Part shown: positions 41,924-50,340 of the stretch, one piece after another
Position numbering within the stretch: the first letter of the stretch is position 1
Layout of the letters: the number at the start of each line of letters is the position of its first letter
Assembly (NCBI GenBank): GCA_043822065.1
Contig: JBDRCC010000020.1
Location: forward strand, 80,598-144,597
Direction of reading: 5' to 3'
DNA from: an archaeon
Lineage (GTDB): Archaea; Undinarchaeota; CAZHTU01; JBDRCC01
Length of the DNA: 64,000 nucleotides
Notes under the pieces: model-generated
Told to the model about the DNA's origin: nothing
Database searches by the model: none
Seen by the model: the letters and a program-made list of their open reading frames with translations, nothing else
Made by a program: the position numbers and the translations under genes

Positions 41924-42808
41924 ATGCAAAACAGGATACGGGATTCGTTAAGGAAAACATTCAACAGAAGGATTTCTGACTACGGCCCGGTTGACTTCGG
42001 CACGCACAGAGCAGAGAAGCCCTCGCAGATACTCCCAATCGCCTCAAAGAAGGTCGTCAGCGTTACCAAGACCACCCCGATAAAAAAGGCAACCCAGGTG
42101 ATGGCTGAGATGGGCGTTAGGAGAATACCCGTCGTGGACCCGGGGACAAACCGGCTTGTCGGCATATTCACGTCCACTGACGTAATGGACTTTTTGGGCG
42201 GAGGGCAGAAATCGAAGCTTGCCGACAACATAAGCAAGGCGCTGAACTATCCAGTCGGCCGCCTCATGGAGGAAAAGGTAAGAACACTCTCCGAGAGCTC
42301 AACAATTACTGATGCGGTTGATACATTCCTCTCCGTCGGCGTAGGGGGCGTTCCGGTAGTCGGCAAAAAAGGCGAGCTTATCGCAGTTCTGACAATACGC
42401 GACTTAATGCACCTTATCGCTGGCAGGGATACCGGCGTAAAAGTGCGCGACGTCATGTCCAAGCCAGTGGTCGCAAGCCCCAACATGGGGGTCACAGACG
42501 TCACAAAGGTCATGGTCCGGAACAACTACTTCCGGCTCCCAGTTGTGGAGAATGACACCGTTGTCGGGATGATAACTTCCATGGACCTTGTAAGGGCGGT
42601 TGCGAGCTCGGAGATATTCAGCCCGAGCATTCTGGTCAAGGACGTCATGACAAAGAAGGTCACGGCAACTAGGCCTGAAACAGACATAGGGCAGATAGCC
42701 CAGATAACGTACGAGCGCGGAACCGGGGCATTCCCAGTGATATCCCAAAACAAGCTCGTAGGCATAATAACCGAGTACGACGTAATGCGGGGTGCATTTA
42801 AAAAATGA
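41924..42808 (+). CDS. Multi-CBS-domain protein
   Basis: RRIPVVD..LVGIFTSTD, GGVPVV, FRLPVV..VGMITSMD, FPVI..VGIITEYD. Confidence 0.9.
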   Translation: MQNRIRDSLRKTFNRRISDYGPVDFGTHRAEKPSQILPIASKKVVSVTKTTPIKKATQVMAEMGVRRIPVVDPGTNRLVGIFTSTDVMDFLGGGQKSKLADNISKALNYPVGRLMEEKVRTLSESSTITDAVDTFLSVGVGGVPVVGKKGELIAVLTIRDLMHLIAGRDTGVKVRDVMSKPVVASPNMGVTDVTKVMVRNNYFRLPVVENDTVVGMITSMDLVRAVASSEIFSPSILVKDVMTKKVTATRPETDIGQIAQITYERGTGAFPVISQNKLVGIITEYDVMRGAFKK

Positions 42809-43560
42809 TAGCCAAGGACTACCTAGAGCAGACCTTCTCCGTAGAGGCGAACGACACACTCTCCCATGTAAAGAAAATGATGCTGCGGCACAAGTCCACT
42901 TTTGCCCTCGTCTTTGACAACGGGGCGTTCTCAGGGCTCATAACTGCCAAGAGCATGCTCCAGAAAAACAAGACAGGCGCAAAATGGAAGCGGCGCAACG
43001 TCGAGCTTCTCCTTGCGAGAAACGCAACCCTGCCAAACGTCCCAGTTATAACTCCGGACTACTCCGCTGCGAATGTCGCAAAGCTTCTGGTGCGGGATTC
43101 GCTTCCAGCGGTTCCAGTCAGCGACGGCAAAAAAATAATAGGCGTCGTCACAAGGTACTCACTCCTTGAGCACTTCAACAAGAATTACAAGAACGCGTAC
43201 AAGGTCTCAGACCTCATGCACAAGGACATAGTCACCGTCAACAAAATGCACTCGGTAAAGCATGCGCACCAGCTCCTCTTCAAGAGGGACCTGACCAAGA
43301 TTGTGGTAGAAGATGAGCGGATGCCAATTGGCGTCGTTACGGACCGGGACCTGCTGTTCAAGTCCGAGGACGGCGCGCAGGTAAAGGACATCATGTCCAA
43401 GGGCGTCTATACTGTGAAGCCGACCGATGACGCAGCCGCAGCAGGCGCGCTGATGCTGAAATACCGGGTTTCAAGCCTTCCAGTGGTGGGGGCGGCCCTA
43501 ATGGGCGTGCTTACCCGCTCAGACCTAATAAAGAAGATCAAGGAGCCGCAGGGCAGATAG
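42805..43560 (+). CDS. Multi-CBS-domain protein
   Basis: Four CBS-like units, e.g. IGVVTDRDL and SSLPVV..GVLTRSDL. Confidence 0.88.
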   Translation: MIAKDYLEQTFSVEANDTLSHVKKMMLRHKSTFALVFDNGAFSGLITAKSMLQKNKTGAKWKRRNVELLLARNATLPNVPVITPDYSAANVAKLLVRDSLPAVPVSDGKKIIGVVTRYSLLEHFNKNYKNAYKVSDLMHKDIVTVNKMHSVKHAHQLLFKRDLTKIVVEDERMPIGVVTDRDLLFKSEDGAQVKDIMSKGVYTVKPTDDAAAAGALMLKYRVSSLPVVGAALMGVLTRSDLIKKIKEPQGR

Positions 43561-43572
43561 GATGGAGGAAAA

Positions 43573-44343
43573 ATGAAGATATCAAGCATTATGCAAAAAG
43601 ACGTTACGACGATTGACAAGGACGAGACGGTCCACAACGCCATCTCAAAAATGTCAAAGGCATCCGTTTCCAAGCTTCCGGTCTTGAACAACGGGAAACT
43701 AGTTGGCATAGTCACCTATTCCGACCTGCTAAAGGTCCTTGGCTCGTCAAGGCAGCAGGCAGTGCCGACCCACATTCACGTCAGCAATGCGATGCAGCGT
43801 GACGTCAAAATTGCGAGTGAGGATCACGAGCTTTCCCATGCCGCCAGCCTTATGGTCACCTACGGCATATCCTCGCTTCCGGTCATGCGCGGCGACTCCA
43901 TAGTCGGCATAGTGACAAAGACTGACCTCGTTGGAACTTTCACGGACAAGGCCGCCAAGGTAAAAAGTTTGATGATCCATCCGGTAACGATCTCTCCGAC
44001 CGACCGGATAGTGCATGCGCGCGAGATAATGTTCAAAAAGGGCATCTCAATGCTGCCTGTTGTCGACGATGGGGAAGTTCTCGGGACAATAAATGAGGGG
44101 CACATAGCTGAGACGCTGGACGTCTTCAGGCGGAAAACAGAAAAGCACCAGGCGAAGCGCGTTGCAGAGATACTCGTTGAGGACATCATGTCCAGGGAAA
44201 TCCCGTCAACTACCCAAGATACCTCGGTCGTCGACGCAATAAAAGCCATGAAGCAAAAGGGGACGACATCGCTTCTCGTCATGGACAAAGGCAAAGTAGT
44301 GGGCGTCTTTTCTAAGACAGATATACTCCCTCTTCTGAGGTAA
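43573..44343 (+). CDS. Multi-CBS-domain protein
   Basis: SKLPVL..LVGIVTYSDL, SSLPVM..VGIVTKTDL, MLPVVD, VGVFSKTDI. Confidence 0.9.
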   Translation: MKISSIMQKDVTTIDKDETVHNAISKMSKASVSKLPVLNNGKLVGIVTYSDLLKVLGSSRQQAVPTHIHVSNAMQRDVKIASEDHELSHAASLMVTYGISSLPVMRGDSIVGIVTKTDLVGTFTDKAAKVKSLMIHPVTISPTDRIVHAREIMFKKGISMLPVVDDGEVLGTINEGHIAETLDVFRRKTEKHQAKRVAEILVEDIMSREIPSTTQDTSVVDAIKAMKQKGTTSLLVMDKGKVVGVFSKTDILPLLR

Positions 44344-46077: not shown

Positions 46078-46293
46078 CTAGATTAGGTTCATCTTTTTGG
46101 AAACGTCCAGAAGCGTGTCGACGTCCTTCACGTCCATCGGGCCCACTATCCCGAACATCCATGGCTCTACGTCAGCGCCTATCTCCGCAATAGTATTTCC
46201 CCTGTAGTTTATCTTGACGTTGTAGCCGTTGTCCGCAAGCTCTTCGCACAACCCCTTTATCTTCGAGTATTTCCCGATAATCGAGTCTATCAC
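46078..46293 (-). CDS. Small hypothetical protein (71 aa)
   Basis: GTG start with GGGGAG upstream; translationally coupled to the upstream small ORF. Confidence 0.6.
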   Translation of the reverse strand: MIDSIIGKYSKIKGLCEELADNGYNVKINYRGNTIAEIGADVEPWMFGIVGPMDVKDVDTLLDVSKKMNLI

Positions 46294-46448
46294 TTCTCCC
46301 CCTTGAAAATCTCGCCTATTAAGTTTGGCTTCAGAATGTCGACGCTTATGTTTTTGCCGTCGCCAGTTATCCTGACTGCGACGTGGCCTTTTATCTTGAT
46401 GTCCACCTCAGCCCCGGACTTCAGAAGCGCATCAACAATCTCATTCAT
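46290..46448 (-). CDS. Small hypothetical protein (52 aa, not in ORF track)
   Basis: Hand translation MNEIVDALLKSGAEVDIKIKGHVAVRITGDGKNISVDILKPNLIGEIFKGEK; GTGA overlap with the next gene. Confidence 0.6.
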   Translation of the reverse strand: MNEIVDALLKSGAEVDIKIKGHVAVRITGDGKNISVDILKPNLIGEIFKGEK

Positions 46449-47179: not shown

Positions 47180-48322
47180 CTAAAGTACGAAGTTGAAGAC
47201 GTATCCGAGCAAAAGTATCTGCGGCACGGTTATTACAGGCAGCCAAAGCGCCGTCCTCCTTCCAATGTTCGACCACAGCACGCCTATTTCGGTGTAATCA
47301 GTTGCAACGCCCGCCATGAGGAAGACAAAGCTGTTTCCGAATGCCCCAGTCTGCCTGAAAATCTCGAACGCCATTGGCGAGCTGCCCTCTGAGCAAATCT
47401 CAATTACTGTCGCCACCGTAAGAGTCACAAGCATGCCGAGCGCGCTGGCGCCCATGAACCTCATAAAAAAGTGCTCAGGGACGAACGCCCTCGCGGTCGC
47501 AGCGAACATCATCCCGATTATTATCCACCAGACCACCATCCTGGTGAGCGACCAGCAGCCCATCAGGACCCCGCTCAGCATCTCACCGGCCTGCTTTGGC
47601 GACTTCCTGTAGGCCGCCCACCGCCTCCTGACGTCCTTTCTTATGGAAAAGCCGCTCGAAACCTTGACGCTGTTTGGGTTCCTGTCCATTTTTCCAATCC
47701 CATCAAGGGCCTGGTAGGCAAAGCCCGTTATAACGGCTATCACTATCGCTGACGCCACAAGATACAGGGCTTTAAACCCGAAAAAGCCGAACAGGAGGAT
47801 GGTCACTGGCAGGTTTGCCCATGGGCTTGCAAGAAGGAATGCCACCACCGCCGGGACAGATGCTCCCTTTTTGTATAACTGCACGGACAGGGCGAGAATT
47901 CCGTGGCTGCATGCGCTCATCATAAACCCAAGCAGGACGGCATACAGCACCGTGATTCTTTTCGTGCCTGAAAGGTACTTGGATATGTACTCCTTCGGGA
48001 TGAAGTAATCTATTGCCCCGCCCAAGCCGAGCCCGAGCAGTATTGCCCACCAGATTATCCTGAAATAGTCCAGAAACGCCAAGCGCCACGGCATCAGCGG
48101 CTCAACAAAATACGATGCTCCAAGAATGCCTACAGCAACAAGCGAAACGATGTAAACCTTCTCTTTGTACCAAGGGTGGCTCTCTTTTCCGCATGCTATG
48201 CAGATTGAGTGCGGGATTTTGTTCTCTTTCTCGTATTTCCTAAGGCAGCGCTCGCTGCAGAAATACTCACCGTGCATGGGAATTGTCCCGTCCATTCCGC
48301 AGACAGGGCATTTTTTAGCCAT
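47180..48322 (-). CDS. DUF318/ArsP-like permease with N-terminal TRASH/YHS-like metal-binding domain
   Basis: CPVCGM...YFCSERC; ACSHG and ICSEG TM motifs; AFLLASP. Confidence 0.85.
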   Translation of the reverse strand: MAKKCPVCGMDGTIPMHGEYFCSERCLRKYEKENKIPHSICIACGKESHPWYKEKVYIVSLVAVGILGASYFVEPLMPWRLAFLDYFRIIWWAILLGLGLGGAIDYFIPKEYISKYLSGTKRITVLYAVLLGFMMSACSHGILALSVQLYKKGASVPAVVAFLLASPWANLPVTILLFGFFGFKALYLVASAIVIAVITGFAYQALDGIGKMDRNPNSVKVSSGFSIRKDVRRRWAAYRKSPKQAGEMLSGVLMGCWSLTRMVVWWIIIGMMFAATARAFVPEHFFMRFMGASALGMLVTLTVATVIEICSEGSSPMAFEIFRQTGAFGNSFVFLMAGVATDYTEIGVLWSNIGRRTALWLPVITVPQILLLGYVFNFVL

Positions 48323-48327
48323 GCCTG

Positions 48328-48663
48328 CTAGAACACGTCCACGCTATATATTGCTTCCCACTTTCCGTGGATGTTGCAGCTTTCCCTCGCAGCAAGGCTG
48401 CCTGATTTTGAAAGCTTTATCCTAAAAACCGCTTCCGCTACTGTGTCTGGAGGGACCTTGAAGCCCTTTTTGGCTATCTCCTTTCCCCCGAACCAGAGCG
48501 AGACCCACTCTATATGGTGCGCCCCTTCCATAGGGTGCGGGACGCTCCCGACATTCACCCTCACTTCAAACTCCTTTCCGGCTGAAATCCTCTTAGGCAG
48601 TTCTGCTACCGGCAGGTGCTTTTCGTTTCCAGGCGCTTCCTTGTGCTTATATTCTGAGTCCAT
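48328..48663 (-). CDS. Superoxide reductase (1Fe, neelaredoxin-type)
   Basis: EKHLP, HPM...HHIEW, CNIHG. Confidence 0.92.
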   Translation of the reverse strand: MDSEYKHKEAPGNEKHLPVAELPKRISAGKEFEVRVNVGSVPHPMEGAHHIEWVSLWFGGKEIAKKGFKVPPDTVAEAVFRIKLSKSGSLAARESCNIHGKWEAIYSVDVF

Positions 48664-48671
48664 TTTTCCAC

Positions 48672-48785
48672 CTACTGCAGGGTCATGTCCTGGCCGCAGC
48701 AGACCAGAGTACCGGCTCCAGCCCCGACAACCTTGACCTTGTTCCCGCAGATTTCACACAGGTATGTCTGTCCAATCTTAGTCAT
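48672..48785 (-). CDS. Stand-alone desulforedoxin (37 aa, not in ORF track)
   Basis: MTKIGQTYLCEICGNKVKVVGAGAGTLVCCGQDMTLQ; CxxC...CCG..M motif. Confidence 0.88.
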   Translation of the reverse strand: MTKIGQTYLCEICGNKVKVVGAGAGTLVCCGQDMTLQ

Positions 48786-48905: not shown

Positions 48906-49007
48906 TTATCCGCAGCAGCCGCACCTGCAGTCGCAATCCACCATCTTCTTGCCGCAGCACATGGCAGACGTCCTAGAATGCTTTCCGCATTTTTTGCAGT
49001 GGTACAT
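48906..49007 (-). CDS. Cys-rich microprotein (33 aa, 9 Cys, metallothionein-like; not in ORF track)
   Basis: MYHCKKCGKHSRTSAMCCGKKMVDCDCRCGCCG; GAGGAG 8 nt upstream. Confidence 0.68.
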   Translation of the reverse strand: MYHCKKCGKHSRTSAMCCGKKMVDCDCRCGCCG

Positions 49008-49019
49008 GCTCTTTGCTCC

Positions 49020-49241
49020 TCAATCGTGCTCTTCGAACACCTTATTCTGGACTTCGTCGCTCTTCCTGAGGTACTCCACGAGCATCGCCACATGCTCCTT
49101 CTCCTCGTTCATGTTGTGGGTCAGGACTTTTTTCAACTCCTCATCATGGGTCGTGTCTATCCGCCCCTGGTACTTGTTTATCGCGTCCAGCTCTTCAATC
49201 AGTGACTGCCTTGCAAAATTCAAATCCATCGAACTTACCAT
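49020..49241 (-). CDS. Short ferritin-like protein of the encapsulin-cargo (EncFtn-like) type
   Basis: SLIEELDAINKY...HNMNEEKEHVAML; GGAGGT upstream; start at MVSSM. Confidence 0.82.
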   Translation of the reverse strand: MVSSMDLNFARQSLIEELDAINKYQGRIDTTHDEELKKVLTHNMNEEKEHVAMLVEYLRKSDEVQNKVFEEHD

Positions 49242-49242
49242 T

Positions 49243-49746
49243 TTAACCTCCAAAGACCATGAATTTCGAACCATCGGTGCCGCACAGCGGGCACCTGCCC
49301 GGCCTTGACTCGTGTGTATACCCACATACCGGGCATACATAAAACTCTTTCTGCCGGATGTCCCCTCCTGACTCAAATGTTTCTAGGGCTTTCCTGAAAA
49401 GGCCCTCATGTATCTTCTCAACCTCGTTTGCCCAGTTGAAGGTCTTCCAGGCATCGTCGTTTTTTTCCTCTTTTGCATTCTTCATGAATTCAGGGTACAT
49501 CTTCTGGTGCTCGTAGGCTTCACCCTCAATCGCCTTTTTGAGGTTCTCTTTTGTATCCTTAACACCGTTCATTATGCCAAGGTGGTTGTGCGCGTGCACA
49601 GTCTCCGCCTCGGCAATTGCCCGGAACATGTTAGCGATATTCTTTTTGCCGTCCTTCTCCGCCCTCTTTGCAAAGGCAAGATACGCCCTGTTTGCCTGGC
49701 TCTCGCCGGCGAAGGCGGCCTTCAAATTTTCATCAGTTTTCCCCAT
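49243..49746 (-). CDS. rbr: Rubrerythrin
   Basis: AFAGESQA, EAETVHA, EKIH, CPVCGY...CPLCG. Confidence 0.95.
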   Translation of the reverse strand: MGKTDENLKAAFAGESQANRAYLAFAKRAEKDGKKNIANMFRAIAEAETVHAHNHLGIMNGVKDTKENLKKAIEGEAYEHQKMYPEFMKNAKEEKNDDAWKTFNWANEVEKIHEGLFRKALETFESGGDIRQKEFYVCPVCGYTHESRPGRCPLCGTDGSKFMVFGG

Positions 49747-49757
49747 GTCCCCTCCAA

Positions 49758-49798
49758 AACCTTATAAGCAATACTAATTTTAGCTCACTTATAACTAT
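49758..49798. promoter_or_regulatory. Divergent promoter region between the two rubrerythrin-type genes
   Basis: Two TTATAA boxes (about 49762 and 49789) flanking the small palindrome CTAA-TT-TTAG. Confidence 0.45.
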
Positions 49799-49818
49799 TC
49801 TGTTCTAGGAGGTATATC

Positions 49819-50340
49819 ATGATGCAAGTGTTCCGGTGCAAGATATGCGGAGACCCATACATAGGCGAGGCGGCACCGACCCACTGCCCGTTCTGCGGCG
49901 CGCCAAAAAAATACATAATCCTTGCGAAGGACTACGTTGAACCGATTATAAAGAGTATGTCCGAGGCTTCACGGAAGAACCTCGAAGCGGCGGTAAAGCT
50001 CGAAGCGAGCAACTCCGCGTTCTATAAATGCGCCTCAACCAAGGCGCTGGCGAAGAAGGACCAAATCGGGTACGCAATGTTCAAGGCGCTTTCGAAAGTC
50101 GAAGCTGAGCATGCAATAACCCTGGCAAAGGCGCTCGGCGCCCCGCGCCCGGAAATGGGCGAGGAAAGCTGCTCTGCAGAGTTCCCAGAGAACGTTGCCA
50201 GCGCCAAGCAGAGGGAGGCGCGCGCAACCAAGCACTACGGCGAGTTCCTTGCCGCAGCCACTGAGCCAAGGCTGAAGGAAATCTTCGGTGCACTAATCGA
50301 GGTGGAGAAGACCCACGCGGAGTTGCTAAACTCAATATGA
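49819..50340 (+). CDS. Reverse-rubrerythrin-like protein (rubredoxin plus ferritin-like domain)
   Basis: CKICG...CPFCGA, then E..EAEH / E..EKTH diiron motifs. Confidence 0.88.
   Translation: MMQVFRCKICGDPYIGEAAPTHCPFCGAPKKYIILAKDYVEPIIKSMSEASRKNLEAAVKLEASNSAFYKCASTKALAKKDQIGYAMFKALSKVEAEHAITLAKALGAPRPEMGEESCSAEFPENVASAKQREARATKHYGEFLAAATEPRLKEIFGALIEVEKTHAELLNSI

Follow-up and report, generated by a model that had tools for sequence, protein, structure and literature searches.

What does a reading frame of only 33 codons, nine of them for cysteine, encode in an archaeon? The frame lies in the window, the 64,000-nucleotide stretch of an Undinarchaeota contig analysed here, and was initially annotated as a candidate archaeal metallothionein of a possibly new family, a hybrid of a desulforedoxin-like half and a metallothionein-like tail. 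It runs from 49007 to 48906 on the minus strand (the initial annotation gave no strand), and its translation is exactly as quoted there, with nine cysteines (residues 4, 7, 17, 18, 25, 27, 29, 31 and 32) and two histidines (residues 3 and 10). Reading frame, cysteine rank and family profile together describe a microprotein gene whose product, hereafter called P0002, appears to join a miniature desulforedoxin core to a cysteine tail. The core spans residues 2–22 (YxCxxCG-x8-CCGxxM; 48942..49004, minus strand), and C4, C7, C17 and C18 are predicted to form a tetrahedral metal-(SCys)4 site. The tail, residues 25–33 (CxCxCxCC; 48909..48935, minus strand), is modelled with low confidence and may provide a second, looser metal or thiol site.

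P0002 is a real gene and a conserved coding module, and the strongest evidence for this is its family. That the frame is a chance cysteine-rich stretch and no gene is a reading we hold to be very improbable. P0002 was missed by gene finders, and it is absent from the 16 other genomes of the same phylum that we used for comparison; on the other hand, it has a Shine-Dalgarno sequence, it is packed into an operon and it ranks first in cysteine content among small frames. The Shine-Dalgarno sequence GAGGAG (49016..49021, minus strand) lies 8 nt before the ATG and overlaps the stop codon of the upstream gene for an encapsulated-ferritin-like (EncFtn) protein. The gaps to the flanking frames are 12 nt upstream and 1 nt downstream. 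The cysteine fraction of 27% is the highest of 9,483 ATG-started frames of 20–70 aa in all six frames of the host genome (1.03 Mb, 82% complete). Codon adaptation resembles that of the neighbours (0.725 versus 0.675–0.705), which is weak evidence by itself because random stop-free stretches place the value at just their 77th percentile. Moreover, the complete family motif would be expected by chance once per ∼3e11 bases, by our own arithmetic. A search of the genome with the family profile gave P0002 as the sole clear copy (E 9.6e-9, P0002 itself being a row of that profile). The exact peptide is absent from the called proteins of a 15-billion collection, and P0002 has no match at E≤1 in Pfam and NCBIfam and none among PDB sequences. 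A search of the ESM Atlas provided leads only, with best scores of 0.84 for P0002 and 0.78 for the next frame, P0003.

The family came to light in a scan of GTDB genomes with a DNA pattern for [YF]xCxxCG-x8-CCGxxM. At least 117 loci carry the core motif, versus ∼4 expected by chance (our own arithmetic, with uniform bases). In 115 of the 117 listed loci it sits inside a short frame of ≤63 aa, with starts that we chose ourselves and with one frame running off its locus. Two of the 117, a poly-cysteine shadow and an out-of-frame match, were dropped. Among the matches listed, and including the window copy, 116 loci divide into 66 with the core only (median 28 aa), 27 with extra cysteines and 23 with tandem double cores; since a free core-only protein occurs at 66 of these loci, the core needs no tail. 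A profile search found 181 representatives at E≤0.001 among 1.84 billion. The best 150 of these comprise 88 core-only proteins, 22 with N-terminal, 12 with C-terminal and 2 with both-end extra cysteines, 18 tandem forms and 8 that lack the exact spacing, counts that are partly blurred by mis-called starts. The 24 copies in one bacterial phylum differ by 1,848 synonymous and 608 non-synonymous single-base codon changes, counted over non-independent pairs and with six residues fixed by the pattern.

The members are almost always stand-alone microproteins of 27–60 residues. They make up a widespread family, often overlooked by gene callers and unnamed in the libraries searched, so the suggestion of a possibly new family is supported. 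In a larger collection, only 2 of 22 near-length matches bear a source name, in both cases ‘hypothetical protein’. The literature searched, which included few subscription papers and no supplements, holds no description of the family and does not contain the phrase ‘archaeal metallothionein’; in its accessible text, ‘desulforedoxin-like’ occurs in C. difficile work only (PMC7482061). The label ‘archaeal’ fared less well. The family is mostly bacterial and not specifically archaeal: the matches listed come from Rokubacteria, Bacillota, Omnitrophota, Ratteibacteria, Firestonebacteria, Patescibacteria, Bathyarchaeia and Woese-/Pacearchaeota. Its distribution is patchy, with 24 copies in 23 of the 65 genomes of one bacterial phylum (that of G152) and copies in 7 of the 401 genomes of the phylum that contains Woesearchaeota (one of the seven, G399, is unpublished). 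The core pattern was found in 0 of 150 archaeal relatives. The family profile found no true member in the 16 same-phylum genomes; of two weak partial matches, one is in what we take to be an RNA polymerase subunit P-like gene and the other lies inside a 395-aa frame.

Some members depart from the stand-alone form. The tandem double-core proteins, of ∼52 aa with 8 cysteines and some with CH for CC, occur at L014, L022, L049, L060 and other loci of Bacillota, where GPI, PrkA or two-component genes are frequent neighbours. The core also occurs joined to SEC-C-like motifs (P0087, P0127, P0156), is repeated at the end of thioredoxin-like proteins (P0017, P0103, P0157) and is present in a receiver-domain protein (P0161). 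A dedicated fusion search returned five longer proteins: a thioredoxin-like protein, a receiver-domain protein and three C2H2 zinc-finger proteins, the last three taken as chance and left unused. Scoring of 7,996 candidates showed no fusion of the core to a superoxide reductase, but this absence is weak evidence.

Where does the core come from? Desulforedoxin is a homodimer. The protein from Desulfovibrio gigas (1dxg, 1cfw) and centre I of desulfoferrodoxin (PF06397, TIGR00319) share with the core the YxCxxCG start, the CCGxxM end and the four cysteine ligands, as well as the predicted fold and a place next to superoxide reductase and rubrerythrin. The echo of desulforedoxin heard in the initial annotation proved real on comparison of profiles: aligned to 22 desulforedoxin domains by hhalign, the core scores a probability of 96.2 (E 2.8e-9) over 23 columns with one 6-residue gap. 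In the alignment of the family itself the invariance of the C, G and M columns is partly built in, because the search pattern fixed them. The desulfoferrodoxin N-terminal model PF06397 matches 36 of 57 members weakly at E≤1 (best 2.2e-5), and TIGR00319 gives weak matches in 25 of the 57.

The predicted structure points the same way. The AlphaFold model of P0002 has a mean pLDDT of 81.6, with 88–90 in the first 20 residues and 57 at the end. All three Foldseek matches to it are desulforedoxin or desulfoferrodoxin (best E 0.8, prob 0.69), and VIA-align superposes it on desulforedoxin 1cfw with Z 2.3 and an rmsd of 1.0 over 24 residues. In VIA-align, however, 1cfw ties with the heavy-metal-binding domain (HMBD) of a copper ATPase (8ovl, Z 2.4), eIF2gamma and Nob1. 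The tiny size of the protein keeps these scores low; each is weak, and it is the agreement of the methods that argues for kinship. HMBD (PF19335) and the rubredoxin-like domain of rubrerythrin (PF21349) share a small knuckle architecture with P0002 (8ovl: rmsd 1.9 over 28 residues), but their ligand sets, CPMH...CxxC or CxxC...CxxC, are unlike those of P0002. The hhalign comparisons of the core with these two domains are partial, with probabilities of 23 and 55 from only 5 and 2 sequences, and the sole match of the HMBD profile in the genome is the C-terminus of the rubrerythrin, with none in P0002.

Judged by its sequence and predicted fold, the core is a relative of desulforedoxin whose hairpin appears shortened by six residues. 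It is not a desulforedoxin proper. P0002 itself has no match to PF06397 or TIGR00319 at E≤1, it carries five extra cysteines, and its operon holds a separate canonical desulforedoxin. We call it a shortened relative and not a member because its spacing is CX2CX9CC, whereas the desulforedoxin centre is defined as CX2CX15CC in the accessible text of PMC3116461.

The tail is less constant than the core. About a fifth of the relatives have an extra cysteine cluster at one end or the other, with 2–6 additional cysteines. Among the listed relatives the cluster is N-terminal in 20 of 26 and contains CxxCGC in 10 of 26; the N-terminal clusters of L061 and L176 closely resemble the tail of P0002. Five of the six published archaeal copies, all from the Woesearchaeota-containing phylum, have two or three C-terminal extra cysteines, as P0002 does. 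Cysteine totals are 6–8 in the 26 other extra-cysteine relatives and 9 in P0002, the densest complete frame, with 10 in one incomplete 63-aa frame. The hybrid build proposed at the outset, a core plus a variable cysteine cluster, therefore recurs among relatives, and by its distribution in these sequences the tail appears to be a movable module of variable size, of which P0002 carries the densest version. Conservation of the cysteine pattern, on which the initial annotation had staked its proposal, is found for the core and not for the exact spacing of the tail: the pattern CxxC-x9-CCGxxMxxCxC gave 26 matches in metagenomes, none credible (out of frame, low-complexity or startless shadows). 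Both histidine positions vary in the family alignment, and histidines were rejected as ligands. A precedent for a short cysteine cluster that binds one ion tightly is E. coli HypB, whose N-terminal CxxCGC is a high-affinity Ni/Zn site according to the accessible text of PMC12284835. Ten of the 26 extra-cysteine relatives have this motif at the N-terminus; the cluster of P0002, by contrast, is C-terminal (CxCxCxCC), so the N-terminal amine required by the HypB site is out of its reach.

Does the cysteine-rich protein end where P0002 ends? One nucleotide past its stop begins P0003 (48794..48904, minus strand), a 36-aa frame with 6 cysteines and a run of five lysines, whose status as a gene is uncertain. 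It lacks a Shine-Dalgarno sequence and has a codon adaptation of 0.574. A homologue search found none, matches to PDB sequences were at E≥0.96 only, and a single-sequence model (pLDDT 70.6) had no Foldseek match. P0003 might be a remnant, a metal-binding peptide without known kin, or the latter part of a split gene. In the last case, P0002 and P0003 would be one metallothionein-like protein of ∼70 aa and 15 cysteines, split by an assembly error or joined by +1 frameshifting. The adjacency without a Shine-Dalgarno sequence is what such a split would leave, the frame of P0003 is open across P0002, and in relatives the cysteine cluster is often followed by a lysine-rich linker like the start of P0003. 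Nevertheless, most relatives run at most a few residues past the core or tail, the search for homologues of P0003 found none, and the junction is presumably no recognised slippery site. We consider a split gene improbable.

P0002 is the third gene of a tightly packed minus-strand run with gaps of 1–12 nt: rubrerythrin, EncFtn-like protein, P0002, P0003, desulforedoxin, superoxide reductase and ArsP_1 permease. The rubrerythrin (49243..49746, minus strand) matches PF02915 and PF21349, and the 73-aa EncFtn-like protein (49020..49241, minus strand) matches PF22277 (E 8e-23). Neither an encapsulin shell gene nor rubredoxin was found in the 82% complete genome. The stand-alone desulforedoxin (48672..48785, minus strand; 37 aa) is full-length, with CX2CX15CC, a PF06397 match at E 1e-16 and a TIGR00319 score over the cut-off. 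It is followed by a one-iron superoxide reductase of neelaredoxin type (48328..48663, minus strand; PF01880 E 1e-26, TIGR00332 over the cut-off). The last gene encodes an ArsP_1-family permease (47180..48322, minus strand; PF03773 E 1e-32) with an N-terminal cysteine-rich, treble-clef-like domain; it is distantly like the SO_0444 Cu/Zn efflux proteins (NF033936, below its cut-off). Upstream of the run, an AT-rich divergent intergenic region (49747..49818, no strand assigned) holds two TTATAA boxes that may be archaeal promoters. Beyond it lies a divergent, reverse rubrerythrin-like gene (49819..50340, plus strand) with the rubredoxin-like domain first (PF21349 at 5–32, PF02915 at 53–171). The operon is a non-haem-iron oxygen-defence cluster. 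Within it, desulforedoxin and superoxide reductase (48328–48785, minus strand) are separate neighbours with a stop codon and a Shine-Dalgarno sequence between them, like a split desulfoferrodoxin. A free-standing desulforedoxin also occurs in the cluster of a same-phylum genome (L225, G005).

Do relatives keep the same company? We scanned up to two genes per side of 66 of 80 loci with flanks, 13 redundant Rokubacteria and a shadow match being excluded. By our own tally, neighbours involved in O2 defence, non-haem iron or thiol redox flank 8 of 18 extra-cysteine loci, 4 of 33 core-only loci and 0 of 15 tandem loci. The eight positive extra-cysteine loci represent about four lineages (four from one phylum, two from another), and we claim no statistic for these counts for that reason. 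Every one of the 24 copies in the bacterial phylum of G152 has an N-terminal cysteine cluster, 23 of 24 have neighbours of these kinds (a few identified from their N-terminal sequence) and 13 of 24 lie within ∼1.5 kb of a superoxide reductase. No heavy-metal ATPase was seen among the scanned neighbours of the 66 loci. Three loci with N-terminal clusters (L038, L046, L082) sit between an Orn/Lys/Arg decarboxylase gene and a DUF1858 gene.

Is P0002 a metallothionein? If so, all nine thiolates would build one polynuclear cluster (M3S9 with zinc or cadmium, or several Cu(I) ions) nucleated by the knuckle core, and the protein would store or detoxify soft metals together with the downstream permease. 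We consider this unlikely on balance. Nine cysteines are the ligand count of a three-metal domain and would fit a three-metal cluster. Small size and high cysteine content, which mark a metallothionein, are both found here (33 aa, 27%), in the densest complete-frame member of the family; like the bacterial SmtA/BmtA (PF02069) and the mycobacterial MymT, P0002 has CxC and CC motifs; and its operon ends in a permease that resembles SO_0444, below the cut-off. Moreover, the accessible text of PMC10612145 describes a zinc-finger fold as the frame of bacterial metallothioneins too, and a knuckle with extra ligands would be analogous to the zinc finger and cluster of SmtA described there. A GATA-type zinc-finger fold is not among the listed fold matches of the 33-residue model.

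The metallothionein label is not borne out by other evidence. P0002 has no match to a metallothionein family in Pfam and NCBIfam, PF02069 has no match in the genome (it does in a control genome, Synechococcus), and the top 25 families matched by the 57 members include no metallothionein. Both histidines are unconserved and the exact tail was not found again. The extra cysteines vary in number and position, as would be expected of an added site more than of a fixed cluster. An SmtB/ArsR metal-sensing repressor typically adjoins a metallothionein of SmtA/BmtA type; P0002 has none adjacent, ArsR-type regulators (PF01022) matching on contigs C11, C19 and C21 alone while the locus is on C20. The scanned neighbours of relatives include no heavy-metal ATPase, and both the desulforedoxin-type core and the oxidative-stress operon set P0002 apart from SmtA/BmtA and MymT.

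The explanation we favour, to which we give about an even chance, is that P0002 is a mini-desulforedoxin with a cysteine tail and plays an accessory part in the operon's defence against oxygen and peroxide, with one Fe(Cys)4-type site and a second site that holds metal more loosely. Because the core is a desulforedoxin relative in an oxygen-defence cluster, a small helper in iron or electron handling is more likely than a classical metallothionein. P0002 would be made with the operon on exposure to oxygen. C4, C7, C17 and C18 would hold one tetrahedral metal, most probably redox-active iron as in desulforedoxin, and the flexible five-cysteine tail would hold one further, more exchangeable ion. 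The protein might then shuttle electrons, iron or both to the non-haem iron enzymes of the operon, and metal released by oxidation would be buffered by the tail. The tail would be partly metallothionein-like in action, with two separate sites and not one cluster.

Several observations count against this helper role. The HMBD of a copper ATPase ties with desulforedoxin in fold. Same-phylum archaea keep clusters of rubrerythrin, desulforedoxin and superoxide reductase, yet a true family member is present in none of the 16, and superoxide reductase adjoins none of the six other archaeal copies examined. An extra electron carrier is not needed, because the operon has its own desulforedoxin and rubredoxin is present in all four bacterial genomes tested. 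In the 82% complete host genome we did not find FMN reductase, the flavoprotein that lies beside most bacterial family copies.

Alternatively, P0002 might be a structural adaptor, in which a zinc-binding core docks on a partner to regulate or chaperone it, with the tail as a redox switch. Unrelated genes (thiolase, KaiC-like ATPase, PrkA, GPI) flank the core-only and tandem forms, which makes the core a general-purpose module, and its fusion to thioredoxin-like proteins in P0017, P0103 and P0157 would suit an adaptor. We nevertheless rate this as rather unlikely, given that the tail-bearing forms are enriched in iron and O2-defence operons and that the only partners shared between this operon and its bacterial counterparts are non-haem iron enzymes.

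We think it unlikely on balance that P0002 is an archaeal metallothionein of independent origin, made from a desulforedoxin-type knuckle and a cysteine tail, with a three-metal nine-thiolate cluster and soft-metal buffering coupled to O2 defence. It would then stand at the cysteine-richest end of an undescribed modular family leading from one-metal carriers to metal stores. Should tail and core form such a cluster, an archaeon would possess a metallothionein, and a path by which an electron carrier can turn into a metal store would be shown. If they do not, P0002 is still a missing small part of the oxygen-defence operons of uncultured anaerobes. Either way, the core may be among the smallest natural four-cysteine metal sites, and it can be made by peptide synthesis, which opens its metal preference and redox potential to direct test.

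Three minor observations concern other parts of the genome. Two small frames of 71 and 52 aa (46078–46448 in the window, minus strand) have no notable family match. Three consecutive genes (41924–44343 in the window, plus strand) look to us like CBS-domain proteins. Another small cysteine-rich frame of 35–37 aa, CxxC...CxxC...CxxC..H/C and zinc-finger-like, lies on contig C4 near 18001 (minus strand).
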